From positions 1-15,538 of the forward strand of contig JABXKD010000083.1 of assembly GCA_013375475.1 (NCBI GenBank): 15,538 nt of DNA, given 5' to 3'. The position numbers were made by a program, and so were the translations under genes. The notes beneath the pieces are model-generated. The model was not told the DNA's origin and searched no databases. It saw only the letters and a list, made by a program, of their open reading frames with translations. Below are positions 1 through 15,538 of this stretch, piece after piece. Source of the DNA: Promethearchaeota archaeon. GTDB taxonomy: Archaea > Asgardarchaeota > Lokiarchaeia > Sigyniarchaeales > SOKP01. The first letter of the stretch is position 1. The number at the start of each line of letters is the position of its first letter.

Positions 1-549
1 AGCCCTCCCAGCAGGTAAAAAAGTCTCATGAAACTCAGGAAATCTCCGTGATTTATACATTACCGCTAATTGATTCCATAATTTTGCTGTTATTGGTGAC
101 ACTAAAAAACCTTTTTCAGCATAATGAATTGCTGGTTCAAACAACTCTTTAAAATTTAATTGCCCATATCTTTTGGACAGAGCAACCCAGGCGGAAACAG
201 CCCCGGGAATCGTCACAGAATCCCATCCCAATAATGGCATAGCTTTATATTTAGAAAAATGTTCTACGGTCCAACCTGAAGGAGATTTACCTGAAGCATT
301 TATCCCTACTATTTTTTTTCCATCAAAAACGATTGCAAATGCGTCGCTTCCAATCCCATTATTAACGGGTTCAACCACAGTAAGCGTTATTGCAGTTGCT
401 ATAGCCGCATCTATGGCATTTCCTCCCTTTCTAAGCATACTTAATCCAGCTTGGCAGGCAAGAGGTTGAGATGTAGAAACTATATTTTTGGCTAATACTG
501 GCATTCTTCTAGAGGGATATGGGAACTCCCATTTAAAATTTTCATCCAA
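1..549 (-). CDS. ggt: Gamma-glutamyltransferase family protein (YwrD-like), N-terminal part; runs off the left edge
   Basis: Not in the ORF track; translated by hand from TTG at 549: MDENFKWEFPYPSRRMPVLAKNIVSTSQPLACQAGLSMLRKGGNAIDAAIATAITLTVVEPVNNGIGSDAFAIVFDG...GINASGKSP...GWDSVTIPGAVSAW. These are the GGT N-terminal motifs (GGNAxDAAIA, VVEP..GIGxD, VTxPG). Confidence 0.93.
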   Translation of the reverse strand, partial: MDENFKWEFPYPSRRMPVLAKNIVSTSQPLACQAGLSMLRKGGNAIDAAIATAITLTVVEPVNNGIGSDAFAIVFDGKKIVGINASGKSPSGWTVEHFSKYKAMPLLGWDSVTIPGAVSAWVALSKRYGQLNFKELFEPAIHYAEKGFLVSPITAKLWNQLAVMYKSRRFPEFHETFLPAGRA

Positions 550-617
550 AATTTAAGTTACACTTTTAATTATGAATTTTTTTAATGATTAAATTTCTAA
601 AGCTATTTATAATTTTA

Positions 618-1133
618 TTATTCGCCTTGATAATTAATCAATTCTTTTTCAATCATTTTTATCAATTCGAGAGAAAAAGGTATGGAATTCGCCAGTACAT
701 TGACTAATTGATAGACCTTGTCAAAACCATGCATATCTTCTATAGAAACCTTTTCCTTATCAATATCTTCCTTAATTGTATTTATTTTTTTAGCGAATTT
801 TGAGATGTCGCTTGTAAGGTCTCTGAACGAATGAATAAAGGCTACAATTGGATTTCTCATTGAATAAGTAATTTCCCCAGTGTTAGACACACCAGTCTTT
901 TCGATTAGATCCATAGAAATTAATTTTTTAACTTCTTGTGATATTGTTCCTCGCGAGAATCCAGTAAGCTCTTGCAATTTTTCTTGAGTTAAGGATTTTC
1001 GGGTAATAAAATAAATTTTAATTGTTATAAAAGTAGTTTTTTGCCCGATAAAAAGGGAATAGGACGTGAGGAATTTAAAGATGTCCTTTTCAATCACTCG
1101 TATTTCGTCATCAAATTCTTCGATTGTATTCAA
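618..1133 (-). CDS. Winged-HTH transcriptional regulator, GbsR/MarR-like (subtype B, copy 1)
   Basis: HTH segment LTQEKLQELTGFSRGTISQEVKKLISMDLIEK followed by a helical C-terminus. GGAGG site upstream of the TTG start. The start overlaps the upstream stop by 4 nt (TTGA). Confidence 0.8.
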   Translation of the reverse strand: MNTIEEFDDEIRVIEKDIFKFLTSYSLFIGQKTTFITIKIYFITRKSLTQEKLQELTGFSRGTISQEVKKLISMDLIEKTGVSNTGEITYSMRNPIVAFIHSFRDLTSDISKFAKKINTIKEDIDKEKVSIEDMHGFDKVYQLVNVLANSIPFSLELIKMIEKELINYQGE

Positions 1134-1912
1134 GTCTTATCCTCCCTAAGCTCTTTTATAAAAGTTGATTCATTAATCTTTTCTAGCAATTTTACATTAT
1201 ATTCAAAAAAGTTAATCATTTCAGTTACTCTTTTTGAGAGTATATTATAGCCGTTTTTATCTTTATTTTTGTCTAATTCTTGAACCTTACTTAATAAGAA
1301 TTCAATTGCGCGTTCATTAGATTCAGATTTATAAGATCCAATGTTAGAGGCAATATCAGCCATATTAGTTCCTAAGGTATAGAGATATTCGCGTTTTCCT
1401 TCTAAAGGTTCTTTTTTTATTGCAGGAGCACTCGATAAGATCTTTAAACTCTGAGAGATAGCGCCTTTTGAAAACCCTGTTAATTCTTTAAGTTGTGTTT
1501 GAGTTAAACTTTCATGGAGTAGTAAATAACCAACAATAGAGCCAAAAACAGCGTTCTGACCTTTGATTTTACCAGCATCAACCAGAATTTCTATTAAACG
1601 CTTTTCATAAACCCTAACTTTCCCTTCATATATGTGTGATTTGCTTTTTAGATGTTGTGCATAGCAGAGATCAAATGTTTCTTCCATGGCATTCCATAAT
1701 GCCTCGGTTTCTTCATCGTTAACCTCAAGGTCTTTAAAACTTGTTTTTAATTGATACAATGAATCATTTTCCCAAATTGGATTTGTGAGGAAATCTTTTA
1801 TTGTTTCTTTTAAGTAATTAATATTTCTACCTTTGTTTTGACTTAAATAACTTTGAATTATAGCCTTAGTTAATTCCAAAATATGCTTAAATTTTTCTGA
1901 ATTAGTTTGCAT
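1130..1912 (-). CDS. Winged-HTH transcriptional regulator, GbsR/MarR-like (subtype A, copy 1), with ~90-aa N-terminal extension
   Basis: IVGYLLLHESLTQTQLKELTGFSKGAISQSLKIL...KREYLY matches a GbsR-like HTH and wing. The C-terminal ~170 aa align by eye with ORF 4414..4929. Confidence 0.8.
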   Translation of the reverse strand: MQTNSEKFKHILELTKAIIQSYLSQNKGRNINYLKETIKDFLTNPIWENDSLYQLKTSFKDLEVNDEETEALWNAMEETFDLCYAQHLKSKSHIYEGKVRVYEKRLIEILVDAGKIKGQNAVFGSIVGYLLLHESLTQTQLKELTGFSKGAISQSLKILSSAPAIKKEPLEGKREYLYTLGTNMADIASNIGSYKSESNERAIEFLLSKVQELDKNKDKNGYNILSKRVTEMINFFEYNVKLLEKINESTFIKELREDKT

Positions 1913-1989
1913 CTATAAAGGTTATGAAATCTGGCTACGATATTTAATATTCCTTAGATATAATATGGGAATACTTATTATTAAGTATT

Positions 1990-2099
1990 TTCAAAATTCA
2001 TGAACTTTTTATGTTTCATTTTCACTAAAAATGAAAATGTTTATAAGTGTAAAAAATATTTAGTATCATGGTAATAAAACAATTTTCAAAAAAGGTGAA
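1990..2099. promoter_or_regulatory. Three TTCA-N7-TGAA palindromic boxes (1990-2004, 2021-2035, 2085-2099) around the putative ABC promoter (TATA-like TTTATAAG at ~2040-2047)
   Basis: Read directly: TTCA-aaattca-TGAA, CATTTTCA-ctaaaaa-TGAAAATG (8-bp perfect arms, 2017-2039) and TTCA-aaaaagg-TGAA (overlaps the AGGTGA ribosome site). Operator role is inferred. Confidence 0.7.
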
Positions 2100-2105
2100 A
2101 GAAAA

Positions 2106-3062
2106 TTGAATGCGATCGAAATAAAAAATCTAAAAAAATATTATAACAAAGGAAAGATTAAAGCGGTTGACGGAATTTCACTCAAAGTTCCAAAAGGAGC
2201 AAGATATGGATTTTTAGGACCGAACGGTGCAGGAAAAACGACGACAATTAGATGTATTTTAGGTTTTCTTAATATCGACAGTGGAATAACTATGATCAAT
2301 GGCGAAGAAATTAACCCGAAAAAGGATGTTAAATTTAGAAACCAAATTGGGTACCTTCCAGGTGAGCTTGGGCTCTATAAATACATGACAGCAGAACAGT
2401 TAGTAAAATATTTTGCAAAACTCTTTGATATTGAAATCGACTGGAAATTCATTAAGGATGTCACAGAAAGACTTGAAATTGAAATGGATCGGAAAATGGG
2501 TGTGCTCAGTAAAGGAAACAAACAGAAAATAGGTGTTTTAACCGCCTTAATGGGTAAATACGACATTCTAGTTATGGATGAGCCAACCTCTGGTCTAGAT
2601 CCTTTAATGCAATCTGAATTTTATAGGATAATTGCTGAACGCCAAGAAGAGTCTAATTGTACCGTTTTTGTATCTAGTCATGTGCTTCCCGAAATTGAAA
2701 AATTTTGCGATCAAGTTGCCATTATTAAAAACGGTAAAATTGTAGAAGTCTCCAGTGTTCAGGAGCTTAAAAAGAAGAGTTTAAAACGAGTTGAGCTAGA
2801 TTTTGAAAACAATAAAGGTTTATTGGAATTTAAGTCGTTTCTACTATCAGAATTTCCTGAGGCGATCTTAAAGCAAAATTATCAAAAAAGAATCGAATTT
2901 CTTCTCCCTTATAACCAGTCTCGCGACATATTGCAGTATTTAAGTAAAAATAATTGGGCGGGAATGCCCATTAAAGACTTTACCATTACACACTCAACTT
3001 TGGACAATATCTTCCTGGAATATTATAAAGATTCTAATCAAAAAGGAGGTGAAATTGTTTGA
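2106..3062 (+). CDS. ABC-2 type (drug/peptide exporter family) ATP-binding protein
   Basis: Walker A GPNGAGKTT, signature LSKGNKQK, Walker B/D-loop ILVMDEPTSGLDP, H-loop SSH. Confidence 0.95.
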   Translation: MNAIEIKNLKKYYNKGKIKAVDGISLKVPKGARYGFLGPNGAGKTTTIRCILGFLNIDSGITMINGEEINPKKDVKFRNQIGYLPGELGLYKYMTAEQLVKYFAKLFDIEIDWKFIKDVTERLEIEMDRKMGVLSKGNKQKIGVLTALMGKYDILVMDEPTSGLDPLMQSEFYRIIAERQEESNCTVFVSSHVLPEIEKFCDQVAIIKNGKIVEVSSVQELKKKSLKRVELDFENNKGLLEFKSFLLSEFPEAILKQNYQKRIEFLLPYNQSRDILQYLSKNNWAGMPIKDFTITHSTLDNIFLEYYKDSNQKGGEIV

Positions 3063-3874
3063 AGGTGATTCAAACTACCTTAAAAGAGATAAGGTATAGC
3101 ATTAAAGGAATTATAATTCTTGCTTTATTATTTGGATTATTTTTTCTAGCATTCATGGCTATCTACGATCCTACGCTCTTTGAAGATATGGAAGCGTTAC
3201 TTGCAAGCTATCCTGAAGCAATTGTCGCAATGGTTGGAAAATATATCGCATTAACAACTTTTGGAGGTTTTTTGAACGTATATCTCTTTTCAATGACTTG
3301 GTTTTATTTTGGTTTCTATTTTATAATAAAAGCAGCGCAGGATATACCCAAAGAAATCGAGGATAAAACAGTTGATATTATTTTGTCAAAACCTATTAAG
3401 CGGTGGAAATTTGTAATAGGTAAATATGTGCGGCATGTAATAACTGCGTTTATTCTTGTTGCTTTTTCAAGTCTAGGAGTTCTTATTGGTGTTTTTGCTT
3501 TTCCAACTATAGTTCCGAGCGAAGTATACTTTAACGAGATATACGCGGTGTTCCTATGGCTTTTTGTATTTTTAGTTGCATTGATTAGTACATCGTTATT
3601 CTTTTCGACATTTCTCCGTCCACGGCGTGCACTTACCTTTAGCTTTGCTGTTATAGTTTTTTTTTATATTGTAGGGATATTCTGGGAAGCGTTTCCAGAA
3701 GCAGTCCAAGGCATGAAATTTTTGAGTATATTTTATTATTTTGAAACATCGAATTTGCTTGTAAACCATGTCTGGGATAATGTTCTCCTAAACATTTTAA
3801 TTCTAACGGGATATTCAGCATGTATGGTAGGCTTATCAGTGTTTATATTTAATAAGCGAGATATTCCCGTTTAA
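3059..3874 (+). CDS. ABC-2 type transporter permease
   Basis: About six hydrophobic segments and the motif EIEDKTVDIILSKPIKRWKFVIGK, ending in FNKRDI. GGAGGTGA at 3045-3052. Overlaps the ATPase stop by 4 nt. Confidence 0.9.
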   Translation: MKVIQTTLKEIRYSIKGIIILALLFGLFFLAFMAIYDPTLFEDMEALLASYPEAIVAMVGKYIALTTFGGFLNVYLFSMTWFYFGFYFIIKAAQDIPKEIEDKTVDIILSKPIKRWKFVIGKYVRHVITAFILVAFSSLGVLIGVFAFPTIVPSEVYFNEIYAVFLWLFVFLVALISTSLFFSTFLRPRRALTFSFAVIVFFYIVGIFWEAFPEAVQGMKFLSIFYYFETSNLLVNHVWDNVLLNILILTGYSACMVGLSVFIFNKRDIPV

Positions 3875-3883
3875 TTTTTTTTT
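3875..3883 (+). terminator. Oligo-T tract at a convergent gene junction (putative archaeal-type terminator)
   Basis: T-run directly after the permease TAA, abutting the stop of the convergent regulator. Confidence 0.4.
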
Positions 3884-4403
3884 ACTTTATTTCTAAACTT
3901 TCGGAAAATTTTTCATATATTTTAATTGCTGGTAGATAGAAGTCTATAACTTTCATGACATTATCGTAACCATTCATTGTTTCAAGTTTACTGCGCTTAG
4001 TTTCCATTTCATTTTTCATTTTATCAAGGTGATCTTGCCACTTAAGCATCGCAGCGATGATGTTTTTAATTCTAGCAGTAGAAATCTGTTCAACTGATTC
4101 GAAAGTATATACTTTTCTACGAATACCAGGGATTTTCTTTCTAATAATCATTCCTGAATCTACAAGATTATTTAGTTCTTGTGAGATTTTCCCAGACGAG
4201 TAACCAGTGAGATGTTTAAGGAGATGTTGGGTTATTTCCTTTCTTAACATTATATAGATTAAGATTTTAGTAGTAATTTCGTTTCTAGTAGAGTAAATTG
4301 GAGATTTAATCAGATGCTCTACGATTTCTTTCTCAATTTTTCTTACCTTATCGTCATAAGTATCTTCTTCATCTTCCATTTCCTTACACTTCCCTTTTTT
4401 CAA
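3882..4403 (-). CDS. Winged-HTH transcriptional regulator, GbsR/MarR-like (subtype B, copy 2); start may be ATG 4379
   Basis: ITQHLLKHLTGYSSGKISQELNNLVDSGMI. N-terminus YDDKVRKIEKEI parallels FDDEIRVIEKDI of 618..1133, and C-terminal MNGYDNV parallels MHGFDKV. Confidence 0.8.
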   Translation of the reverse strand: MKKGKCKEMEDEEDTYDDKVRKIEKEIVEHLIKSPIYSTRNEITTKILIYIMLRKEITQHLLKHLTGYSSGKISQELNNLVDSGMIIRKKIPGIRRKVYTFESVEQISTARIKNIIAAMLKWQDHLDKMKNEMETKRSKLETMNGYDNVMKVIDFYLPAIKIYEKFSESLEIK

Positions 4404-4422
4404 TTATCAATTATCAATTATC
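4400..4422. repeat. 7-bp tandem repeat (TCAATTA)x3
   Basis: tcaatta tcaatta tcaatta tc spans the junction between the two regulator genes. Confidence 0.8.
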
Positions 4423-4929
4423 GCTTAACATTTTAGTCATCGAAGGCGTAATCTTCATAACCTTTTTATATCCATCTAATAACACATTTAATTGAGTGCG
4501 AAGATTTTTGTAACCTTCTTTGCCTTTATATTCTTCCAATTCGTTCAATTTATTTTCCATAAATTTAGAAATTAAAGTAAACTGCTCAATTGAAACCTCG
4601 CTAGATGTTTCAAATATTTTTGGAAGATCTCCAATCTTTGAATATAGATTCATATTACTCGATGCTATTCTTTCTTTTTGTACTACGCCAAGCTCAACTA
4701 AATTTCCAAGTGTTGCTGAAATTGTACCAGAAGAATACCCAGTTAGTTCTTTCAAATTAGATTGAGATAACTTATCGTGAATGATTAAATATCCAAGAAT
4801 CTCTTGGATCTTTGCAGGTGTATCTTTGTTCTTACCAATATCTATAAAAAATTTAATAAGAGTTTTTTCGTAATCTTTGATTTTTCCTCTAAATCTAAAA
4901 TCGTAATCTGGCGCTTGGTTTGAATTCAT
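4414..4929 (-). CDS. Winged-HTH transcriptional regulator, GbsR/MarR-like (subtype A, copy 2)
   Basis: ILGYLIIHDKLSQSNLKELTGYSSGTISATLGNLVELGVVQK. GKIKDYEKTLI parallels GKVRVYEKRLI of 1130..1912, and KEGYKNL parallels KNGYNIL. Confidence 0.82.
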   Translation of the reverse strand: MNSNQAPDYDFRFRGKIKDYEKTLIKFFIDIGKNKDTPAKIQEILGYLIIHDKLSQSNLKELTGYSSGTISATLGNLVELGVVQKERIASSNMNLYSKIGDLPKIFETSSEVSIEQFTLISKFMENKLNELEEYKGKEGYKNLRTQLNVLLDGYKKVMKITPSMTKMLSDN

Positions 4930-4950
4930 TAATTCTATATTGTTTTTAGA

Positions 4951-5067
4951 GTTTTTAAACTTTTCATATCATGTGAAGTTTCATAAAAAATGAGGAACCT
5001 TTAAATAGGTAGTTTACTATTCATAATATGAACATTTCAAAACTCATGAAAGTTCATTAAAATTGAA
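4951..5067. promoter_or_regulatory. Divergent promoter region with TTCA-N7-TGAA boxes (4963-4977; 4980-4994 with one mismatch; 5036-5050; 5053-5067), an N5 variant (5020-5032) and TATA-like boxes (minus ~4952-4959, plus ~5000-5007)
   Basis: Read directly: TTCA-tatcatg-TGAA, TTCA-taaaaaa-TGAG, TTCA-aaactca-TGAA, TTCA-ttaaaat-TGAA and TTCATA-a-TATGAA. Function is inferred. Confidence 0.7.
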
Positions 5068-5108
5068 GAAATAAAATAATAAAAAAAAGAAAAGGGAGTG
5101 AAAAGAAA

Positions 5109-5363
5109 GTGATCTCAGAAAAAGAATTTAAAAATTACGAAGAAGTTCCCTATAATGAAGAGCCTGAAATGATAAAGAAGGAAAAAAAAGTTGAGAAAAT
5201 TTATGAAATGATTGAACAAGAAAGAATATATGATATTTTTCCTACCTATGATCTTCAAGACGAGAAATTGACTCAAGATATATTCGAGATTTATAAAGTT
5301 CTATTCTGGGGAGTAGCTGCCGTAGCTTCCACACTCCTATGGTTATACTTTTTCATAACCTAA
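5109..5363 (+). CDS. Small hypothetical protein with charged/acidic N-terminus and a single C-terminal transmembrane helix
   Basis: GTG start after GGGAGTG. Hydrophobic tail VLFWGVAAVASTLLWLYFFIT. Fills otherwise empty space and ends 1 nt from the convergent PHP stop. Confidence 0.7.
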   Translation: MISEKEFKNYEEVPYNEEPEMIKKEKKVEKIYEMIEQERIYDIFPTYDLQDEKLTQDIFEIYKVLFWGVAAVASTLLWLYFFIT

Positions 5364-5364
5364 T

Positions 5365-6141
5365 TTAAGATCTATGAAGACCTGGATCCAGATATGGTTT
5401 TTCAGAATATAAAATCTTAGTTTGTTTCTTTTTTAATTCTTCTAATAACGCTTCCTCGGTAAATTCTTTAAGCTTTAATAATGTCCAGCCGTGAACTCCC
5501 CCACTTAGCAATTTAACGGGACTATGCATATCTGTTCCGGTAAGCATTCCAATTTCTCTATTATGTTTCGTACAAAAATCATAGGATTCTTGATCAAAGA
5601 CATTTTCTGGGAGAGAATCGTCATTAACAATCTCGATATAATCAACTCCCCATTCCAATAAGGTTTCTCGAGTTGGATGGTTTTTGTATTTGGCTTCATA
5701 TAAACTCCATGGAATATGGTTACAGACAACTATGCCGCCTTGATCATGAACTTTGTTAATGGTTTCAATAATCTTTTCGTCTTTAGGTCTATAAGGTACT
5801 CTCGTATTCCATTTTGAGACGCCTAAGAAATTAAGATGAAGTCTATTAGTTGTCCATTCAATACCGCTAGTTATTAGAATGCCTTTTTTAATGTAATCCT
5901 CCTTAATTTTATTGATTTTCTCTAGGTGCCGCATATTATTATGATCGCTTATAGTTAAGGCATTATAACCCATAGCAATGTGCCACTCAACATTTTGTTT
6001 TATTGTAAGTTTTCCATCGCTGTAGTTTGTGTGCGAATGATGATCGTATATTAAATTATAAGCATTCATATCATATTTTGGAATTTTAAGAGGTTTAACA
6101 TTTTTCCAATCATCATCTGAGTAGACACTTGATAAAGGCAT
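5365..6141 (-). CDS. PHP-domain metal-dependent phosphoesterase
   Basis: Motifs DHHSHTNYSDG, ISDHN, GIEW...H, NHIP, IEIVN and GTDMHS. Confidence 0.9.
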   Translation of the reverse strand: MPLSSVYSDDDWKNVKPLKIPKYDMNAYNLIYDHHSHTNYSDGKLTIKQNVEWHIAMGYNALTISDHNNMRHLEKINKIKEDYIKKGILITSGIEWTTNRLHLNFLGVSKWNTRVPYRPKDEKIIETINKVHDQGGIVVCNHIPWSLYEAKYKNHPTRETLLEWGVDYIEIVNDDSLPENVFDQESYDFCTKHNREIGMLTGTDMHSPVKLLSGGVHGWTLLKLKEFTEEALLEELKKKQTKILYSEKPYLDPGLHRS

Positions 6142-6156
6142 GAAATTCTTTACATC

Positions 6157-6945
6157 TCAGATTGATTTTCTATTATAAAGTTCTTTTACAAAAAAAGTCG
6201 CAACATTCTCAGAAAATGTGTTAGGGCCAAAACCAGCATCATATCCTAATTCTTTCGCAAGTTCATTCGAAATTCTAGCACCACCACAGACTAAAACAAT
6301 TTTATCTCTTATCTCCTCAGCTTCCAGCAGATCGACAAGGTTGGTTAAATTTCTCACATGGATATCTTTCTGTGTTACAGTTTGGGAAACAAGAAGTACG
6401 TCAGCTTTTAGTTCTATAGCTTTTTTTACGAATGTTTCGTTTGATACTTGACTACCAAGATTATAAGCTTCAATCAGCTCATACCGCTCTAGTCCATAAT
6501 GCCCAGCAAAGCCCTTCATGTTCATAATCGCATCGATTCCTACCGTATGTGCATCAGTCCCAGTTGTAGCGCCAATAACAACCAACTTTCGTTTTATTTC
6601 GGTTTTAATGAAATCATTTATTTCTTCAATTGTCATCGCTTCAACTTCTACAGATTCTGCCTTTATTTTTGTATAGTCTATTGAGTGCTTTAAGCTTCCA
6701 TATAACACAAAATATGTGTATCCTTGATCTAAAGATACATGATATGCTATTGAAGGTTCTTCTATCCCCATCTTCTTACCAAGTTTTAATGCTGCAATTA
6801 TAGCTTTTTCTCCATCATCTACAGGAAGAGTAAAACTAACTTGTATTTTTCCGTCATTCATTGTGTCTCCATACGGTTTGATTTTTGTTAGATCTAAATT
6901 CTTGTCAAAATCTTTCTTTTCTGTAGAGTAGAGTCCCCCACCCAT
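6157..6945 (-). CDS. kamE: Lysine 5,6-aminomutase beta subunit (cobalamin-binding)
   Basis: KPYGDTMNDGKIQVSFTLP N-terminal domain, B12 base-off motif DAHTVG, PLP lysine in MNMKG, and LLVSQTVTQ. AGGAGGTGA ribosome site; TAATG overlap with kamD. Confidence 0.96.
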   Translation of the reverse strand: MGGGLYSTEKKDFDKNLDLTKIKPYGDTMNDGKIQVSFTLPVDDGEKAIIAALKLGKKMGIEEPSIAYHVSLDQGYTYFVLYGSLKHSIDYTKIKAESVEVEAMTIEEINDFIKTEIKRKLVVIGATTGTDAHTVGIDAIMNMKGFAGHYGLERYELIEAYNLGSQVSNETFVKKAIELKADVLLVSQTVTQKDIHVRNLTNLVDLLEAEEIRDKIVLVCGGARISNELAKELGYDAGFGPNTFSENVATFFVKELYNRKSI

Positions 6946-8513
6946 TAGTCTTCACCTCCTAAGTTCAATTCGCTCGACATTATTTCCAGGATAGGATTGA
7001 AATAATCTTTGCTTTTAGAGATTACACCATCTGATCCCTTCCCACCATCAATAGGTCTTTTTATTTGGGCAAATATCCCTTTTTCTATTGTCTTGAACAG
7101 ACCCTCTTTTTCTATCTTAGTTAAAAGCTCATTAGCTTTATATAATACTTCAGAAGCTCGCTTCTGTATTATCCCCCCTTCTTTAAAGATGATTTCATTT
7201 CCTAAATCTTTCATATTTTTAAAAATATATCTCGCGTTTTCAATGGATAAAGCCCTATCTGACATGAAAGGGGTATGAATTCCTTCTGTTAACATTCCAA
7301 GTAAATGAATTCTCTGATTTGTAAGAATTGTAATCATGTTAAATAATGCGTCTTGAACGTGACCTTTAAAAATGTTTCCAGTCATATATTTTGTAGGGGG
7401 CATGTATTTTAAAGGAACGTTAGGGAAAATCTCTCTTGCCATTTGCGCTTGAGCAAGTTCGTATACAAAACCATTCTCCAATTCGGGATTCATTTCGAAA
7501 GCATGCCCTAAACCCATTTGCTCTTCGCTTAAACCTGCTAATTTCGCAAATTGCTCGTTAATGAATTGCGATGCCAGCACAGTATGAGCTGCCTCATAAG
7601 CGTCATCCGTGGTAAGATAATTGTCCTCTCCAGTATTGATAATAACACCTGCATATGCATTTATCATCCTTGAAAAATGTTGGTCAATCATCGTTCTTTG
7701 CATGTTTATATCCCGAAATAAAATTCCATACAATGCGTCGTTTAGCATCATATCTACTCTCTCGAAAGCGCCCATAGCAGCAATTTCTGGCATACAAAGT
7801 CCTGAACAATAATTAGTAAGCCTCACATATCTTCCTTCTTCTTTGCTCACTTCATCTAAAGCGGACCTCATTAGACGGAAATTTTCTTGAGTTGCATAAG
7901 TCCCTCCAAAACCTTCTGTAGTGGAACCATAAGGCACATAATCCAATAAGCTTTGTCCAGTAGATCTAATTACTGCAATAACATCTGCACCTTGTCTTGC
8001 TGCAGCTTTTGCTTGAATTATGTCCTCAAAAATATTACCCGTCGCAACAATTAGATAAATTAACGGTTCACTTTTTTCCCCATAAGTATTAATTAATTCT
8101 TCTCTGTATTGCATGTTTCGTTTGATAATATTCAAATTCTTCTGAATTATGGAAGATAACGCATTTTTGATTTCAGTTATATTATTTAAAGAATACTCTG
8201 TTATGTTTAATTGTTCTTGAGAAACTATTTCTGCAATATTTTGAGGTGATTTACGAGTATGCAGAATGGTATTTCCAAGGTATAGAGCAATACCATTTTT
8301 AAGTAATCCTGATTGTTGAACGTGATCTACCACAACATTGGGTAATGGAACTCCAAATTCATTAACCCCATCGATCCCTAATAATCTACAAATAGTTCTT
8401 TCAATTGTAGTAGTCGTGTGCTTACCAATGAATTTTTGCGTGTCAATAGCTATATCCCTCGCTATTTTTCTCGCACTCTCTACTATTTTAAAATCCAAAT
8501 TTAATTTATTCAT
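6945..8513 (-). CDS. kamD: Lysine 5,6-aminomutase alpha subunit
   Basis: YLIVATGNIFEDI, IAVIRSTGQSLLDYVPYG, GFGGTYATQENFR, NYCSGLCMPEIA, NTGEDNYLTT and PLKYMPPTK. Confidence 0.96.
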   Translation of the reverse strand: MNKLNLDFKIVESARKIARDIAIDTQKFIGKHTTTTIERTICRLLGIDGVNEFGVPLPNVVVDHVQQSGLLKNGIALYLGNTILHTRKSPQNIAEIVSQEQLNITEYSLNNITEIKNALSSIIQKNLNIIKRNMQYREELINTYGEKSEPLIYLIVATGNIFEDIIQAKAAARQGADVIAVIRSTGQSLLDYVPYGSTTEGFGGTYATQENFRLMRSALDEVSKEEGRYVRLTNYCSGLCMPEIAAMGAFERVDMMLNDALYGILFRDINMQRTMIDQHFSRMINAYAGVIINTGEDNYLTTDDAYEAAHTVLASQFINEQFAKLAGLSEEQMGLGHAFEMNPELENGFVYELAQAQMAREIFPNVPLKYMPPTKYMTGNIFKGHVQDALFNMITILTNQRIHLLGMLTEGIHTPFMSDRALSIENARYIFKNMKDLGNEIIFKEGGIIQKRASEVLYKANELLTKIEKEGLFKTIEKGIFAQIKRPIDGGKGSDGVISKSKDYFNPILEIMSSELNLGGED

Positions 8514-8558
8514 GTGAACTACATCTCTAAAGATAATTTTAATAATTTAATGTCTAAA

Positions 8559-9611
8559 TTATAAGTTGTCACAAGGACCAAGATTGAATATAGGAACATC
8601 AATTCTCTCTTGTAATAATTTTATGAACTGGTTATTTTCAAATTCATATCCTAACGGTGAAGTATGATTAACTGTAATTGCAATTAAATTAATTCGATCT
8701 AGCACCTTTAAGCAGCCCCCCTTTTTTATAAATTTATAGAAAACTTGCTTGCTAATAAATAATTTAGTAGGATCTGTGGCGATTACAGTAAAGCCTTTTA
8801 CTTTTTTATTAGTGACAAATTCATCTAAAATGCTATCGGTTATCGCTCCCTTTATAACCAGATATTTAGCTTCTGTTGTCAAATGATTGAAAATTTCTTT
8901 TGATGATCCTAAAGCTGTAGACTCTTCTAATTTTTTTGATGAATAATCGCGATTTATAATTCCTATTTGAGCTGTGAGTAAAAGATCTCTACTGATTTTC
9001 CTAATTTTATCATCCTTAACTTTCTCTAAGTTAAATAAATCATAGATGTGGGATGTTAGATCAACAACGCTCTCCATATTTCTGGATACAGATGCTCCCG
9101 TGGACAATATGGTTGCATCAGAAATGATGGGCGTCGCGAAAGATCTCCTATCAAATGCACCATCAATAAAAATCACATCGCAACCGATCTTTAACATGTT
9201 ATTACATAATTCTTTTAACTGTTTATTCATTGAGGGCCCTGCTAGTTCAACATATCCGTTTTTATTTGCTTTGTAAATATTGATGTCTCCGAGTGGGGTG
9301 GTGAAATCAGTGCTTTTAATAATTTCGGTCTCAATTTCGCTATTCTTTAAAGAATCTTCAGCTGTAGCAAAAATGGTTCCTTTTTCAACTATAATCTTAG
9401 GTTTTGGAAGCTCAGTAATCGCGTCGTAAGATTCTCCATCTCGACCAATTGAAGTGACTCCAATTATCATATTATCTCTCAATATTTTTATTATGTGATT
9501 TAATGTGGTGGTTTTACTCACATTTTTAGCCAAACCAATAATTGATATAACCTTATACTTCTTTATAGCATCGATTAAGAGCGTCGGAAAGTCCTCATTA
9601 CCTTTCAACAT
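8559..9611 (-). CDS. kamB: KamB-like P-loop protein of lysine fermentation clusters (putative aminomutase reactivation component)
   Basis: SIIGLAKNVSKTTTLN, GVTSIGRDGE..D...LPKPKI, TPLG, VELAGPS, FIDGAFDR and ATILSTGA. Lies between kamA and kamD, as in bacterial clusters. Family assignment is from recall, not a search. Confidence 0.7.
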   Translation of the reverse strand: MLKGNEDFPTLLIDAIKKYKVISIIGLAKNVSKTTTLNHIIKILRDNMIIGVTSIGRDGESYDAITELPKPKIIVEKGTIFATAEDSLKNSEIETEIIKSTDFTTPLGDINIYKANKNGYVELAGPSMNKQLKELCNNMLKIGCDVIFIDGAFDRRSFATPIISDATILSTGASVSRNMESVVDLTSHIYDLFNLEKVKDDKIRKISRDLLLTAQIGIINRDYSSKKLEESTALGSSKEIFNHLTTEAKYLVIKGAITDSILDEFVTNKKVKGFTVIATDPTKLFISKQVFYKFIKKGGCLKVLDRINLIAITVNHTSPLGYEFENNQFIKLLQERIDVPIFNLGPCDNL

Positions 9612-9776
9612 CTATAGTTCAAATTATTAAAAGACTGTATGGTATTTTAATTTTTGAAGAAATACAAATGTAATTTCATAAAAGCTTTATTTATAAAAAC
9701 ACCTTAGTATAAAGTATAAACAAGTACAAAGGTTGATATTAAACTCAATTATAATTTAAATTTAACAAGAAAAAGA

Positions 9777-11855
9777 TTGGTGATTATGAAAATCGAACTC
9801 AAAAAGCATTTTAAAGCATTAATAATAGTTGCAATTCTACTCATTATCCCGTCTTTTATCTCAGCTCCATCAAAAATAAATCCAAGACGAAGATGGGTCA
9901 ATGATCTTCCAGAAAACTATGATTTCTTGAGAAATTCTTACAATGCCACAATGGGATATGAAGCACGGAAAAACATTTATTTAACTGATAGTAATACTAG
10001 TGATGGAATTTACGCGCAATCCTCACGAGTCTATTTAAACGAGTCAGTAAATGAAGCTTCTTTTCAAAGTTCTCTTGATAAGATAAACAATCGAGAGGAT
10101 ACAGCAGACTTTCGAATGGGTTCAATACTCCGAACGATGTATCTCGATAATAAAACTAATGTTTTGGAACCATCGTTCAAATTACAGTTAAAAAATGCTA
10201 TATTAGGTTTTAAATATTGGTTTACAGAGCCTAACGATGACGCTATGATTATGTGGACCGAAAATCATATGATTCTCTTTCATTCTTGCGAACTCCTCGC
10301 AGGACAACTGTATCCAAATGAAACCTTTACTAATTCAGGGATGAATGGTACTCAGCATGTAAAACATGCCTTACCATTGGTTAATAGATGGTTAAATTGG
10401 AGAGCGAGATTTGGATTTTCAGAATGGCATTCTGATATTTATTATGAAGAAGATCTAATGCCGTTACTGAATTTGGTTGAATTTGCTCAAGATAATGATA
10501 CTGCTACTAAGGCAGCGATGTTAGTAGATATTCTAGCATTTGATTTTGCGAATAATTATTTTAAAGGAATCTATGCTACTACGAATGGTAGAACGGATGA
10601 CCATAAAAAGGTTGGAACAAGCCTCACAGATCCTCCGTCACGCGCTTCTTTTGCCGAATTTGCTTGGATTCTACTCGGAGTTGGACATCATGAAGAAAGT
10701 GGGAGTAGTAGTATGTCAGCCGTAGCTCTATCCACAAGTGATAAATATAAACCACCTCCAATATTAGAAGCTATAGCTAACGCGACTTTAGATTACAACG
10801 AACATAGAGATAGGAACGGTATTAATATTGCAGACGGTCCAAGCTATGGTTTTGGATACGAAAGCGAAGATGATTTAATGTTTTGGTGGCCTATGTCTAC
10901 TTTAGTCGCGGGCCCTGTAATTGAACCTACTTTAGATCTCATGAATACTTATGATCTTGATCCTAATTTGATCTTTGAAGATGAACTATTAATAGACCTT
11001 TTAAAAATAGCTGCAGATTTTTATGGAAGCACATTAAGCGAACTTTGCACATTCCTTAAAGAAGCAACTCAAGGAGTCGCTCTTGAAGAGGCGAACACCT
11101 ACACTTATCGGACTCCTTACTATCAATTATCAGGAGCACAAGACCACCAAAAAGGGCTTATGGGGATGCAAGAACACATATGGCAAGCGAGTCTGGATGA
11201 ATACGCTACAGTTTTTACAAATTCACACGGAGGATTTAGAGGTGAAGACCATGTGGGCGGTTTTAAGCCCCGAGCTACGCTCTATAAGAATGTGGGCGTA
11301 ATCCAATATGATCGTCTTTCTCAGTCTTTAATATTAGAATTAGTTTACGCGATTCTTGAATTCAAAGACATTACCCAAGCTTACTTCCCTCGATGGGCTT
11401 TTAACGAAGTAGTACAACAAGATAAATGGACATTTGGAAGAAGGTTAGATAGTTATGTTGCTTTATATTCAAATGAACCACAAGAATGGGAAGATGGTAT
11501 ATTTCTTACATCACAAGGTAAAAAGAATGTATACATCGTCGAATTGGGTAGTGTAGAGGATTATGGGACTTTTGCTAATTTTACTTCCTCAATCTTAGCG
11601 ACAAAACTAGATGTGATACATTTGTCCGTCGGTTATGGTGTTAGATATGTTTCTCCTACTCAAGGAACAGTAAAGGTGAATTGGGATGGTCCGATGACGG
11701 TAAATGGTGCACAGGTTGATTTAGGCTCTTATGCAAGATTTGACAATGACTTTTGCTTTCAAGACTTTAACACTCAAAAAACAACGATTCAATATGGAAC
11801 GATGACATTAGAATTAGATTTTGAGAACGCTACAAGAACTTATACTGAACTATAA
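9777..11855 (+). CDS. Secreted or membrane-anchored hypothetical glycoprotein, possibly heparinase II/III-like fold; start may be ATG 9786
   Basis: N-terminal basic plus hydrophobic segment KKHFKALIIVAILLIIPSFISA. Conserved-looking WTENH and GFSEWHSDIYYEED motifs. Helical N-half and beta-rich C-half. Ten N-x-S/T sequons counted. The fold is an inference. Confidence 0.7.
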   Translation: MVIMKIELKKHFKALIIVAILLIIPSFISAPSKINPRRRWVNDLPENYDFLRNSYNATMGYEARKNIYLTDSNTSDGIYAQSSRVYLNESVNEASFQSSLDKINNREDTADFRMGSILRTMYLDNKTNVLEPSFKLQLKNAILGFKYWFTEPNDDAMIMWTENHMILFHSCELLAGQLYPNETFTNSGMNGTQHVKHALPLVNRWLNWRARFGFSEWHSDIYYEEDLMPLLNLVEFAQDNDTATKAAMLVDILAFDFANNYFKGIYATTNGRTDDHKKVGTSLTDPPSRASFAEFAWILLGVGHHEESGSSSMSAVALSTSDKYKPPPILEAIANATLDYNEHRDRNGINIADGPSYGFGYESEDDLMFWWPMSTLVAGPVIEPTLDLMNTYDLDPNLIFEDELLIDLLKIAADFYGSTLSELCTFLKEATQGVALEEANTYTYRTPYYQLSGAQDHQKGLMGMQEHIWQASLDEYATVFTNSHGGFRGEDHVGGFKPRATLYKNVGVIQYDRLSQSLILELVYAILEFKDITQAYFPRWAFNEVVQQDKWTFGRRLDSYVALYSNEPQEWEDGIFLTSQGKKNVYIVELGSVEDYGTFANFTSSILATKLDVIHLSVGYGVRYVSPTQGTVKVNWDGPMTVNGAQVDLGSYARFDNDFCFQDFNTQKTTIQYGTMTLELDFENATRTYTEL

Positions 11856-12756
11856 ATATGACAATTATAAAAAGGTGAGAATAATAACAATAAAAAACGA
11901 TATAATTGACCTGAGACCAGTAATATGGATTAAAGGCATTTTCATGGTAATTATTGGACTTGAGACCACTCGATTAGGCGTCGGTATAGGCAGAGTAAAT
12001 ACAAATATCTATTACGGTTCATTCATTTTCGCGTTAATCGCGATCTCAGGAATGTTAGTGATATTCATTTTAAAAGATAGGGATAGAGACGAGAAAACAA
12101 GAAGATTTAGCGATCATAAGTTAGTAATTACGTTTAGCGCTGTATTTTATGGTGTTGCGTTTGGTTTGGCAATTTACTATACGATTACTTATAACCTCGA
12201 ATCTTTAAACGTCTATTTATTAGCATTTATCGGTATCTCTTGGTTTCTTACGCTATATTACGGTAGAGATTGGAAGTATAAGGGAATTTTGAGAAATGTC
12301 ATTATTAGCATTTGTTTTTCGTTTGGATTAATTTATGGGGCGTCTCTCAATTACACTCTAATCCCCGCGATTATTTATTTATTTTTCGGAGCTGTTTTTT
12401 TACTCCAAATCTCCAAAGACTTAATGAATGACTGCAAACATATTGCTCGAGATGATACAGAAAATCCTATGTCAATCGCTACTATTCTTGGAGAAGAAAA
12501 AGCTCAAAAATTGTCAATGATTTTAGATATTTTAATAATTATCTTTTTAATTATTCCTATGTTCCCTGGATTTCCAAATATTTTCGCGCAATCAATTTAC
12601 ATTTATATAGCAATTATAACAATTGTTTTTGTAGGCATCGCTGCTTTCCTAAGCTTTAGAATGAACAAGGAGAAAACATATTATCGGATTGTAAAAATCT
12701 TTCTAAGATGTGGAATGTTTCTAGCTTTCACTGGGTTTATTTTAGCGAATTTTTAA
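11821..12756 (+). CDS. UbiA-family prenyltransferase-like membrane protein (DGGGP synthase-like, degenerate motifs); true start probably near GTG 11875
   Basis: DLRP at the N-terminus, LYY...WKYKGILRNVIIS, SKDLMNDCKHIARD...SIATILG, and roughly 8-9 hydrophobic segments. Confidence 0.72.
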   Translation: MRTLQELILNYKYDNYKKVRIITIKNDIIDLRPVIWIKGIFMVIIGLETTRLGVGIGRVNTNIYYGSFIFALIAISGMLVIFILKDRDRDEKTRRFSDHKLVITFSAVFYGVAFGLAIYYTITYNLESLNVYLLAFIGISWFLTLYYGRDWKYKGILRNVIISICFSFGLIYGASLNYTLIPAIIYLFFGAVFLLQISKDLMNDCKHIARDDTENPMSIATILGEEKAQKLSMILDILIIIFLIIPMFPGFPNIFAQSIYIYIAIITIVFVGIAAFLSFRMNKEKTYYRIVKIFLRCGMFLAFTGFILANF

Positions 12757-12757
12757 C

Positions 12758-12769
12758 TTTTTTTTTTGT
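12758..12769 (+). terminator. Oligo-T tract at the convergent UbiA/kamA junction
   Basis: Run of about ten T immediately after the TAA of 11821..12756. Confidence 0.45.
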
Positions 12770-14008
12770 TTATTTACTTAATTTTCTTTTTCTGAGGTTT
12801 CTCTCCAAATCTTCGGGTTCAATTGTCATTTTTTGACCACTCAGAAGGGCTGAAACACCGATTTGTTTTTCACAATCTTCGCAATGACACTCTGGTATGT
12901 AATTCGTAGGTTCTTCATAGGTAGTAATAACACCTTCAAAGTTCCTCAAAACAACTCGAGAGTTACCTTGAGAGATTGTGTAATCGGGCATAACGGGAAT
13001 CTTACCTCCTCCACCAGGTGCATCAACCACAAATGTAGGGACGCATAAACCAGATGTATGTCCTCTTAAACCTTCGATTATTTCAATCCCTTGCGCTACG
13101 CTCGTCCTAAAATGCCCTAGTCCAACTGATAAATCGCATTGATAGATATAATACGGACGAACACGAATTTTTACTAATTCATGAACTAATTTTTTCATCA
13201 CATGTATGCAATCATTTACTCCTCTTAATAAAACCGACTGGTTTCCAAGGGGAATACCAGCATTTGCGAGCATTTCACACGCTCTCTTAGAGTCTTCAGT
13301 GATTTCATTGGGATGATTGAAGTGAGTGTTAAACCATACGGGGTGATATTGCTTTAGCATCTCGCATAATTCAGGAGTAATTCTTTGTGGCATAACAACC
13401 GGACTTCTAGAACCTAACCGAACGATTTCCACATGCGAGATTTCCTTTAGGCTTATCAGTATGTCTTCTAATAATTTATCTGAGATGAGCATCGCATCTC
13501 CTCCTGATAATAAGACATCCCTAATTGAAGAGGTCTCTTGGATATATTCTAGGCATTTTTCTATTTGATCCTTTGGAGGTGCTTTATCGTGATGACCTGC
13601 GAATCGTCTTCGCGTACAGTGTCGACAATACATGGAGCAATTTTCTGTTACAAGGAATAAAACGCGATCGGGATACCTATGAGTTAAACCGGGAGTGGGA
13701 CTATCAACCTCTTCGTGAAGAGGATCCTCTAAATCACCGGGGTATCTAATGAGCTCATGTAATGTAGGAATTGCTTGTTTCCGTATTGGATCATAAGGAT
13801 CGTGAGGATCGATTAATGATAAATAATAGGGAGTGATAGCCATTCTCATCTTTTCCATGATACTCGGATCGTCTTCTTCCTTGGTTAAAGGAATGAACCC
13901 TTTGAGGTCTTCGATAGTAGTTATCCTATTTTTAAATTGCCATCTCCAATTGTTCCAATCTTCATCGATCACTTTTCCGAATAGTTCCATTCGTCTATTT
14001 ACTTTCAT
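12770..14008 (-). CDS. kamA: L-lysine 2,3-aminomutase (radical SAM, PLP)
   Basis: WNNWRWQ, GLTHRYPDRVL, CSMYCRHCTRRR (CxxxCxxC), DVLLSGGD, NQSVLLRGVND, DAPGGGGKIP (PLP Lys) and C-terminal CHCEDC zinc site. Confidence 0.97.
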   Translation of the reverse strand: MKVNRRMELFGKVIDEDWNNWRWQFKNRITTIEDLKGFIPLTKEEDDPSIMEKMRMAITPYYLSLIDPHDPYDPIRKQAIPTLHELIRYPGDLEDPLHEEVDSPTPGLTHRYPDRVLFLVTENCSMYCRHCTRRRFAGHHDKAPPKDQIEKCLEYIQETSSIRDVLLSGGDAMLISDKLLEDILISLKEISHVEIVRLGSRSPVVMPQRITPELCEMLKQYHPVWFNTHFNHPNEITEDSKRACEMLANAGIPLGNQSVLLRGVNDCIHVMKKLVHELVKIRVRPYYIYQCDLSVGLGHFRTSVAQGIEIIEGLRGHTSGLCVPTFVVDAPGGGGKIPVMPDYTISQGNSRVVLRNFEGVITTYEEPTNYIPECHCEDCEKQIGVSALLSGQKMTIEPEDLERNLRKRKLSK

Positions 14009-14120
14009 GATTGTTACCAGAAATCTTAATTTACTAATGTGATTAATTTTTTCTATTTGTTAAAGTTTAGGAGTTTGCGGGAGAATATCCCCATTATAAA
14101 ACTTATATGATTTCTTAAAC

Positions 14121-15233
14121 TTGAATTATTTAATTAACGAGATTATCTTTAGAATGAATTCAGCACAGAATAAAACAACTGCCAAAGGGTTGCAAGGAAA
14201 GGAAGAAATTCGGTTTTTAGATAAATGTCGTAGATTTCCTAGTTTAGTTATTGTTTCTCATCCTAATTCTCCACAAGAGGGTTTTGAGTATATTTTTGAA
14301 AAGCTTAGCGATCTAGAATCAGAGAGAAAAGGGCCTTCAATGATGCAGATAAGGGGAAAGCGCGGAATGCTTCGATTCTTTCGTGTTTTTATAAATTATG
14401 GACGCAAGTTGATGAGAGGAAGAAAGAAATCCTATGACGATTTGGAATCCTATCTCTTAGATTTAGAGCAAAATGGAAAGTATACTAGGAGAACTAATAT
14501 AGAAGAACTATTAAATTCTTATCCAAACAAAGATTTATGGTTCAAACTTCAAGAGTATGCAAAAAACAAATGGAATATCATAAAAATTGGTTTTACAGAA
14601 TTGCCTACAAAACTGATATTTAGAAACAAAATGGTTTTATTTCGATATGCTCTTGTTTTCATGCAAGAAATGAATAAAGATAAGATTGATAACGCTCCAG
14701 GAATAAAAGCGGGTGACGAAACTATACGAATTTATGCCGAATTGGGGGAAGCGGTTGCAGATATTGCAAATTGGCTTCGTTTGAAAGGAATAAGATCTCA
14801 AGCAGTTCATCCCTTAGGTGGACTTGTATGTACACCCCCTCTCGCGGGAAAAGCAGGAATGGGTGGACAGGGCATGCATGGGATCTTAGTTACCCATGAA
14901 TTTGGTCCGCGTCAACGATTGGCTCCCATATTCATTGAAGAAAAGTTGTTTGAGTATACTGACAATGATGAACATAACTGGATTGAGGAATATTGTAAAA
15001 CATGCCGGATTTGCCAAAAAGAATGCCCTGTTGATGCTATTCTTGACAAAAAGGTTATATCAGTTGAAAATATACCGGGAATCGGAGCATTAAAAAGTTG
15101 TATAGATAGGGAGAAATGCTTTCCATATTTTGCTAAGACATTGGGATGTTCAATTTGTATTAAGGTATGCCCATTTTCAAATGGTCCAGAAACTTATGAA
15201 AAACTGAAAAACACAATTTCTCAGAAGAAATAA
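14121..15233 (+). CDS. Reductive dehalogenase-like cobalamin / 2x[4Fe-4S] protein; start probably ATG 14154
   Basis: Y..LGEAVADIANWLRLKGIRSQA, PLAGKAGMGGQGMHGILVTHEFGPRQRL, CKTCRICQKECP and C-X9-CSICIKVCP. No twin-arginine leader evident. Confidence 0.8.
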   Translation: MNYLINEIIFRMNSAQNKTTAKGLQGKEEIRFLDKCRRFPSLVIVSHPNSPQEGFEYIFEKLSDLESERKGPSMMQIRGKRGMLRFFRVFINYGRKLMRGRKKSYDDLESYLLDLEQNGKYTRRTNIEELLNSYPNKDLWFKLQEYAKNKWNIIKIGFTELPTKLIFRNKMVLFRYALVFMQEMNKDKIDNAPGIKAGDETIRIYAELGEAVADIANWLRLKGIRSQAVHPLGGLVCTPPLAGKAGMGGQGMHGILVTHEFGPRQRLAPIFIEEKLFEYTDNDEHNWIEEYCKTCRICQKECPVDAILDKKVISVENIPGIGALKSCIDREKCFPYFAKTLGCSICIKVCPFSNGPETYEKLKNTISQKK

Positions 15234-15278
15234 CCATTATTTTAATTCAAAAAGTAAATTTAAGCTGAAGTTATCTGA

Positions 15279-15538
15279 TTAAACGTACTTCTCTTCAAAG
15301 ATTGCTCTTAATTTATTTGAATTTCGCAATAAATCCAAAGTAATCTCAGCATGGTTTTTAGTATAACCATTTCCTATTATCATAGTTACATCTTTACCTA
15401 CACCTTCAGCACCTAAAGCCGCTTTCGTAAAACTCGTAGCCATTGAGAAGAAATATACTATACCTTCATCTCTCACAGGAAGTATAGAGGATAATTCCGA
15501 GTTTGGGATGCTTAGGCAATTAATGGCGATATCCACTT
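15279..15538 (-). CDS. kdd: L-erythro-3,5-diaminohexanoate dehydrogenase, C-terminal part; begins beyond the right edge
   Basis: ELSSILPVRDEGIVYFFSMATSFTKAALGAEGVGKDVTMIIGNGY is the characteristic Kdd C-terminus, and the context next to kamA agrees. Confidence 0.9.
   Translation of the reverse strand, partial: VDIAINCLSIPNSELSSILPVRDEGIVYFFSMATSFTKAALGAEGVGKDVTMIIGNGYTKNHAEITLDLLRNSNKLRAIFEEKYV

Follow-up and report, generated by a model that had tools for sequence, protein, structure and literature searches.

MarR-family repressors typically bind palindromic operators located in the gap between the regulator gene and an oppositely oriented operon for efflux or transport. MsvR of methanogens is an archaeal autoregulator whose TTCG-N7-9-CGAA boxes occupy the promoter region between divergent genes. 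For Asgard archaea, most knowledge comes from assembled genomes, and our literature search found no described Asgard archaeal operator and no paper containing 'TTCA-N7-TGAA'; the matches listed, judged by title or the opening of the abstract, were off-topic. Here we analysed a stretch of 15,538 bases (contig JABXKD010000083.1, positions 1 to 15,538; hereafter the window) from a Promethearchaeota archaeon whose genome assembly has 3.92 Mb and 32.5% G+C. An initial annotation of this DNA had noted a TTCA-N7-TGAA palindrome (box) repeated beside genes for helix-turn-helix proteins and had read it as their operator.

In bacteria, GbsR is described in part of one report (PMC7396694) as a roadblock acting from operators downstream of the transcription start, and OpcR as acting by promoter occlusion or hindered polymerase access. 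An archaeal GbsR-like group without assigned function appears in part of another report (PMC6207618). The window carries four paralogous winged-helix genes, arranged as pair A (P0003, P0004) and pair B (P0001, P0002), with seven boxes (A1 to A3 and B1 to B4; Table 1). We consider it likely that these boxes are operators of the four adjacent MarR-superfamily (MJ223/GbsR-like) proteins, in a joint reading in which the proteins would act as heterodimeric repressors relieved by a ligand.

Boxes are concentrated in two intergenic regions

An exact search of the window returned six copies of TTCA-N7-TGAA, starting at 1990, 2021, 2085, 4963, 5036 and 5053, the same positions as in the initial annotation. 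All six fell in the intergenic regions 1913-2105 and 4930-5108. In 200 dinucleotide-preserving shuffles of the window the count averaged 0.83 with a maximum of 4, and none reached six. Among 3,328 inverted 4-mer dyads (N0-N12) scanned over the 372 bp, TTCA-N7-TGAA ranked first, with 6 copies where the genome rate predicts 0.018 (Poisson P = 4e-14); the runner-up dyads were shifted versions of the same box. This agrees with the earlier estimate of far below one chance copy in about 370 bp. The near-identical pair pointed out before, the 16-mers at 1989-2004 and 5035-5050, does match at 15/16 positions, and the other intergenic regions that had been named as free of the motif (550-617, 9612-9776 and 14009-14153) held zero exact copies. 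The single-mismatch copy reported at 4980 (TTCATAAAAAATGAG) is also present. One-mismatch boxes as a class were not enriched (22 in the window versus a shuffle mean of 18.6), and we counted the box at 4980 only because orthologues keep its position. The box pattern is highly non-random, and the observation is real.

We then placed the boxes in the context of the whole genome, which holds 185 copies. Dyads with other spacings (N0-N15) numbered 148-249, so N7 is not in excess. When clusters were defined as at least two dyads within 150 bp, the only N7 clusters in the 3.92 Mb were the two window triplets, and no further triplet of the TTCA/TGAA dyad was found genome-wide at any spacing from N3 to N12. 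The comparison with other spacings thus bore out the clustering of N7, while its total was ordinary. A logo of 88 distinct clustered boxes showed almost no information outside tTTCA and TGAAa. Because the box carries about 15 bits and only 8 fixed bases, single sites are expected by chance and cannot define targets, and specificity must lie in arrays. TGAA stood upstream of TATA in 8 of 171 TATA-bearing upstream regions and is therefore not a general promoter word in this genome.

The initial annotation had also suggested that the motif could define a wider regulon. In the analysed genome this was not supported, and we rejected it. There was no other cluster, and no double box (TTCA-N7-TGAA-NN-TTCA-N7-TGAA) with one mismatch or fewer occurred outside 4963-5067. 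Double boxes with two mismatches numbered three, compared with five for the pattern read backwards and 3-12 for other gaps; one of them, at C222:97758, lies inside a 348-aa open reading frame (ORF). Single boxes in non-ORF DNA outside the two regions were at the level of the controls (31 for N7 versus 25, 30 and 31 for N6, N8 and N9). Nothing in this genome pointed to targets outside the four local transcription units.

Half-sites are conserved while spacers drift

To follow the boxes in orthologues, we took 19 regions from related genomes and metagenome contigs, each upstream of a P0001 orthologue (protein identity 69-98%). That of locus L035 (31 bp) was left out, giving 18, and removal of two duplicates gave 16 distinct rows; boxes of region 4930-5108 were scored as YTCA-N7-TGAR. 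At the orthologous loci the motif was present in fixed places relative to the start codons, -138/-121/-65/-48 for P0001 and -187/-123/-92 for P0003. Box B3 was found at -65 in 17 of the 18 upstream regions as YTCA-N7-TGAA (TTCA or CTCA). Over the 16 rows of region 4930-5108, half-site columns had a mean entropy of 0.051 (29/32 invariant), compared with 0.658 for the N7 spacer columns (5/28 invariant) and 0.406 for other intergenic columns (51/118 invariant). In the alignment of region 1913-2105, all 24 half-site columns were invariant, and entropy was 0.287 in spacers and 0.413 in other columns. Rank-test P values for column entropy are overstated because the aligned rows are kin.

Two variants were seen in region 4930-5108. 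In L031 and L041, a 10-bp deletion loses box B1 and leaves overlapping boxes at -128 and -121, making a natural three-box variant of the four-box arrangement. A TTCA-N5-TGAA palindrome (TTCATAATATGAA) at 5020-5032, between the central TATA-like element and B2, is lost in L038, L039 and L040.

Double boxes accompany the regulator family across an order

We looked for the double box first within the genus (42 genomes) and then across the order (154 genomes); gene calls in the compared loci came from an in-house ORF script (first ATG, GTG or TTG, longest kept) and not from a gene finder. It occurred at 36 places in 26 genomes, and the same pattern read backwards occurred at none. At 31 of the 36 places, the double box was intergenic and immediately preceded a gene of the regulator family, which was present as a split pair or as one fused gene of 357-404 residues. 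Two more (L059, L062) were at contig ends, next to the condensation-domain gene that usually accompanies the fused form. The remaining three lay within unrelated ORFs, one in L067 and two in orthologous GH35 genes of L071 and L072. The boxes are thus linked almost exclusively to the regulator family. The genes beside double boxes encode ABC transporters, condensation-domain proteins, S-adenosylmethionine (SAM) methyltransferases, a B12-binding protein and an AsnC-type protein. Since these partners vary while the boxes stay, the boxes travel with the regulator and not with the target.

Within the genus, all 13 family operons examined had at least one exact box upstream and 12 had at least two. 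Fused modules share a layout in which a double box is followed by a central TATTTAAA, another double box whose final box is degenerate in several loci, a proximal TATA and about 30 nt to the ATG. The 17-bp spacing within box pairs is fixed, and the same architecture recurs in paralogous modules that otherwise differ in sequence. Both pairs and the fused relatives have conserved boxes upstream, which is consistent with a palindromic operator in the regulators' own promoter regions. As for the annotated role of the motif as the operator of the local helix-turn-helix proteins, the comparison strongly supports it, with positions and half-sites kept, spacers drifting and 31 of 36 double-box places beside the family; binding itself is what we infer from this pattern.

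The largest array seen, in L078 (G130:C60, 1501-1696), has three consecutive double boxes (six boxes), flanked by the gene for a 131-aa family member on one side and an ABC ATPase gene on the other. Fused regulators are usually divergent from a 440-496-aa condensation/PapA5-like protein with an HHxxxDG motif (loci assessed: L050, L052-L054, L061, L066, L069, L073-L075 and L079). In L052 no such ORF was seen, and in L053 a homologous ORF was called at 347 aa. This partner is possibly an ester- or amide-forming enzyme under the same control.

Boxes adjoin putative promoter elements and a ribosome site

Two TATA-like elements stand back to back in region 4930-5108, and double box B4-B3 (4963-4994) takes up the space between them. 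The outer half-sites of the double box come within 3 and 5 nt of these elements and so cover the expected positions of the B recognition element (BRE) of both promoters. The proximal element would imply a leaderless or near-leaderless P0001 mRNA, beginning near 4929. Over the whole genome, TATA-like octamers are most frequent between -32 and -29 relative to start codons (49 versus about 23 per bin), which fits leaderless mRNAs. The central element, conserved in orthologues within ACCTATTTAAAGG, is presumed to be the promoter of the divergent 84-aa gene, and B2-B1 (5036-5067) begins about 7 nt and ends about 38 nt past the inferred start of that gene, at about 5030.

The 84-aa protein has an acidic N-terminal part and a hydrophobic C-terminal helix (LFWGxSALVSTLLWLYFF), and matched nothing in Pfam or NCBIfam. 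Its start-codon columns read GTG or ATG depending on the locus. Four of the five orthologues were translated from an in-frame internal start aligned with the window GTG; the longest ORFs were 99 aa in L021 and 101 aa in L024.

In region 1913-2105, the genes for an ABC ATPase and an ABC-2 permease diverge from pair A. The ATPase scored 7e-55 against the NCBIfam drrA subfamily, under the model cutoff. The TATA-like element at 2040-2047 is presumed to be the promoter of this operon. Two TATA-like stretches, near 1974-1985 and 1940-1950, are alternative candidates for the P0003 promoter. Box A3 overlaps a Shine-Dalgarno-like GGTGA (2094-2098), from which 7 nt lead to the TTG start at 2106; genome-wide, Shine-Dalgarno-like words peak at -16 to -9. 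Because the whole stretch is conserved, box A3 and the ribosome site are indistinguishable. The sequence is consistent with the earlier remark that the boxes abut TATA/BRE-like elements and a ribosome site.

Public RNA-type runs were also consulted. Four matched, at up to 0.07 of sampled words, and three were compared, all as contigs. A 246-nt piece of an RNA-seq library contig covers 2058-2296. Pieces at 3622-3841 and 4023-4190 come from a run that is probably DNA, and a third run (X4) gave two matches of 33-39 nt at 90-95% identity that continue into unlike sequence. No transcription start, strand or level was evident from these RNA contigs, which amount to five short pieces over the window.

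Regulators resemble MJ223 and are predicted to dimerise

Among solved structures, MJ223 (1ku9) was the best relative of P0001 by sequence (E 6.7e-4) and the only profile match (E 4e-4, residues 19-163 versus 6-142 of 152). The P0001 monomer model was too poor for a fold search (pLDDT, the predicted local distance difference test, 57.7). A model of a fused relative reached 86.5, and its halves matched 4nb5 (template modelling (TM) score by target 0.64-0.66) and 1ku9 (0.61, 21% identity). The likeness to MJ223 is thus found both in sequence and in modelled fold, by modest margins. The modelled secondary structure of the regulators runs helix-helix-strand-helix-helix-strand-strand. Against NF047500 (CudC/GbsR-type), P0003 scored 24.4 bits and P0004 13.8 bits, far under the cutoff of 218, and P0001 and P0002 gave no match, so that equivalence to choline-responsive GbsR/CudC was not found; Pfam annotation found no osmoprotectant genes in the window. 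One source labels relatives 'GbsR (MarR family)'.

An S-x-G-x-I-S motif in the presumed recognition helix is common to P0001-P0004 and to both halves of the box-bearing fused forms, which fits the identical half-sites. Split genes occur as adjacent pairs, and the only unpaired match was on a prematurely ended contig. The fused relatives (357-404 aa) carry two homologous winged-helix halves in one chain, where the window has four separate genes. Their N half is most like P0001/P0003 and their C half most like P0002/P0004, which indicates that the fusion keeps the gene order of the split pair. The C half is the clear case, with domain E values for P0002 and P0004 of 1e-17 to 1e-23, against 1e-5 to 1e-8 for the N half. 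P0003 aligns with the N half through residues 89-250. Its N-terminal extension of about 95 residues (window 1630-1912) matches no family, is kept in orthologues and is missing from the three paralogues. For P0002, 3 of the 11 aligned orthologues begin at an ATG matching window 4379. Nothing relevant on fused MarR forms was found among the literature matches listed.

The predicted P0001+P0002 complex scored 0.72, and the best of three controls 0.01. Among solved complexes, 116 of 157 reached this score mark, as did 2 of 215 mismatched pairs; these counts hold only roughly here because our own alignments were used. Runs agreed in at least 94% of contacts, partner pLDDT was at least 82, and the interface comprised residues 10-52 and 102-168. 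This prediction supports a dimer of that shape but is no proof of a preference for heterodimers.

Proposed mechanism

On the reading that we favour, P0003+P0004 and P0001+P0002 would each form a heterodimer, whose two S-x-G-x-I-S recognition helices would read half-sites 11 bp apart, equal to one helical turn. Two neighbouring dimers would fill double box B4-B3 and cover the BREs of both the regulator promoter and the promoter of the divergent 84-aa gene, and B2-B1 would provide a second double box shortly past the presumed start of that gene's transcript. In region 1913-2105, A2 would abut the exporter TATA, A3 would lie in the exporter leader over the ribosome site, and A1 would stand upstream of the pair-A genes. 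Repression would then hit both regulator operons, the ABC-2 exporter operon and the gene for the small membrane protein, through occlusion of transcription factor B (TFB) and TATA-binding protein (TBP) at both divergent promoters and through a block downstream of the starts, and it would be lifted by a ligand. Repression with autoregulation appears the most likely sign of control, in line with the behaviour of GbsR and OpcR. Judging from the ABC-2 exporter and small membrane protein here and the condensation-domain enzymes of relatives, the controlled biology is probably export or modification of a small molecule.

More tentatively, and with rather more doubt than confidence, the whole may be extended to a Promethearchaeia clade of MJ223/GbsR-like proteins that are obligate heterodimers or fused pseudo-dimers. 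There, an array between back-to-back BRE/TATA promoters would switch both, the second double box would block the divergent transcript, and the cassette would be portable, joined to exporters, condensation-domain acyltransferases or methyltransferases.

Alternative explanations

Several observations weigh against the operator reading or parts of it. The closest orthologues are 82-85% identical across the entire intergenic regions, so conservation alone is weak; the argument draws its force from how half-sites differ from spacers and from the paralogous modules. Among ten loci of distant family members, boxes were found in three (L012, L013, L014); the other seven (L007-L011, L015, L016) had no exact box upstream and shared no alternative palindrome there. 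The N-half recognition helices of these seven depart from S-x-G-x-I-S, a suggestive difference that is confounded by phylogeny. Of the four window proteins, only P0001 reaches the Pfam MarR_2 threshold; P0002, P0003 and P0004 score under it. Box A3, which coincides with the ribosome site in a fully conserved stretch, may be no operator, and the RNA-library contig reaches 2058, upstream of the start inferred near 2070. The complex score may owe its height to a resemblance to MarR-type dimers of solved structure, in modelling confined to the heterodimer.

That the boxes are no binding sites at all, and reflect the shared ancestry of duplicated promoters, general promoter words or AT-rich chance, is hardly credible. 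The box does have only 8 fixed bases and 185 genome copies, and both regions flank paralogous gene pairs. Nevertheless, half-sites are invariant beside variable spacers and flanks, the 17-bp pair spacing is fixed in an architecture that recurs in modules of differing sequence, TGAA is no general BRE word, no shuffle reached six and the reversed control gave 0. Only slightly less improbable is an unlinked factor that binds the boxes and has the neighbouring regulators merely as targets. Nothing speaks for it directly, beyond the fact that binding by the local proteins is itself deduced. Against it, whether the regulator is split or fused, and with at least five kinds of partner gene, the double box stays with the family at 31 of 36 places in the 154 genomes searched; the analysed genome has it nowhere else.

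Two other explanations keep the local proteins as binders, and we regard each as unlikely, though far less so than the two above. Some archaeal regulators activate from sites upstream of BRE/TATA, and the same proteins on the same boxes could recruit TBP/TFB as activators: B4, B3 and A2 each stand upstream of a TATA-like element, touching BRE/TATA from that side. The gap between half-site and TATA is, however, merely 3-5 nt, where TFB should meet the BRE; B2/B1 and A3 are downstream of the inferred starts, as far as position tells; and the MarR/GbsR relatives of known function treated in parts of two reports are repressors (PMC7396694, PMC6207618). The other explanation accepts the operators but has four homodimers sharing or dividing the seven boxes. 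The half-sites are symmetric, all four proteins have the same helix motif, and the characterised GbsR-type proteins and MJ223 are homodimeric according to part of PMC6207618. Heterodimers are favoured over this by the adjacent pairs of split genes, by the gene order kept in fused relatives and by the heterodimer model, which passed its controls in a comparison that left homodimers aside.

Features and neighbouring genes of the window

Table 1. Coordinates of boxes, candidate promoter elements and genes in the 15,538-base window. Negative numbers are positions relative to start codons, of P0001 unless stated.
Feature	Positions	Strand	Evidence or remark
P0004, winged-helix regulator, 171 aa, second gene of pair A	618..1133	-	MarR_2 21.9 bits, below cutoff 27
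P0003, winged-helix regulator, 260 aa, first gene of pair A	1130..1912	-	MarR_2 19.3 bits, below cutoff 27
Box A1, TTCAAAATTCATGAA	1990..2004		exact; -92 from P0003 start in 7/7 loci
Box A2, TTCACTAAAAATGAA	2021..2035		exact; -123 from P0003 start in 7/7 loci; 4 nt before TATA-like 2040-2047
TATA-like TTTATAAG (TTTATATA in most orthologues)	2040..2047	+	read from sequence and alignment
Box A3, TTCAAAAAAGGTGAA	2085..2099		exact; -187 from P0003 start in 7/7 loci
ABC transporter ATPase, DrrA-like	2106..3062	+	Pfam ABC_tran 4.6e-25
ABC-2 type permease	3059..3874	+	Pfam ABC2_membrane_2 2.3e-19
P0002, winged-helix regulator, 173 aa as longest ORF, second gene of pair B	3882..4403	-	MarR_2 19.0 bits, below cutoff
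P0001, winged-helix regulator, 171 aa, first gene of pair B	4414..4929	-	MarR_2 27.6 bits, cutoff 27
Proximal TATA-like TTTAAAAA	4952..4959	-	begins 30 nt ahead of P0001 ATG; invariant in 16 distinct upstream regions
Box B4, TTCATATCATGTGAA	4963..4977		exact; -48 in 18/18 upstream regions; outer half-site 3 nt from proximal TATA
Box B3, TTCATAAAAAATGAG	4980..4994		one mismatch; outer half-site 5 nt from central TATA
Central TATA-like TTTAAATA within conserved ACCTATTTAAAGG	5000..5007	+	conserved in orthologues
Box B2, TTCAAAACTCATGAA	5036..5050		exact; -121 in 18/18 upstream regions
Box B1, TTCATTAAAATTGAA	5053..5067		exact; -138 in 16/18 upstream regions
Conserved 84-aa protein	5109..5363	+	divergent from pair B; five orthologues aligned, 83% mean column identity
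PHP-domain protein	5365-6141		family search
Lysine 5,6-aminomutase B12-binding subunit	6157-6945		family search
Lysine 5,6-aminomutase alpha	6945-8513		family search
Lysine 2,3-aminomutase	12770-14008		family search

Beyond the regulator module, the window holds a gene set typical of lysine fermentation (5365-9611 and 12770-14008), among which a 350-aa ORF matched no family. ORFs of the same lengths and order as the lysine genes flank the regulator module in L024, L025 and L021. The exact search of the window found no TTCA-N7-TGAA upstream of the lysine-fermentation genes. Within 9777-12756, a UbiA-type prenyltransferase gene (11821-12756) begins inside a 692-aa ORF that has no Pfam match. At 1-549, a gamma-glutamyltranspeptidase gene is cut by the window end, leaving its N-terminal part.

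Comparison with known systems

If the proposal of a heterodimer and double-box cassette is true, it would offer a defined cis/trans pair for rebuilding regulated Asgard transcription in vitro. The locus is a precise, testable pair, as proteins of about 170 residues can be produced in E. coli and the 15-bp boxes offer clear mutations. The natural split and fused forms also provide a simple test of whether a MarR-type dimer can combine two different chains.

With MarR repressors, the locus shares a winged-helix dimer (here predicted), palindromic boxes whose half-sites are one helical turn apart, a divergent ABC-2 exporter operon and autoregulation (here proposed). It differs in its archaeal host with BRE/TATA promoters, in its box pairs spaced by 17 bp, and in a regulator made of two adjacent paralogous genes, or of one fused gene in relatives. 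Both the roadblock and the occlusion mode proposed here have counterparts in the GbsR family (B. subtilis GbsR, OpcR and B. infantis OpuAR), as far as these are covered in part of PMC7396694. The GbsR operator given in the same part is an AT-rich inverted repeat with a 4-bp spacer, unlike the window boxes. GbsR-family proteins and MJ223 are homodimeric, whereas the window regulators are proposed to be heterodimeric.

In carrying two winged-helix halves that stand in for a dimer, the fused relatives are like SarS of S. aureus (1p4x) and PF0095 of P. furiosus (2qlz). These fold matches are weak (E 8.5e-3 and 4.8e-2, low TM), and the window has the split form. As in the archaeal autoregulator MsvR, several similar boxes would lie over BRE/TATA and the transcription start between divergent genes. 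MsvR itself is different, since the model score was 16 bits against a cutoff of 220, the V4R domain is missing and the half-site is another one. The system is thus ordinary MarR-type in kind, and what distinguishes it is the split or fused subunits, the paired boxes bridging back-to-back archaeal promoters and the Asgard host.

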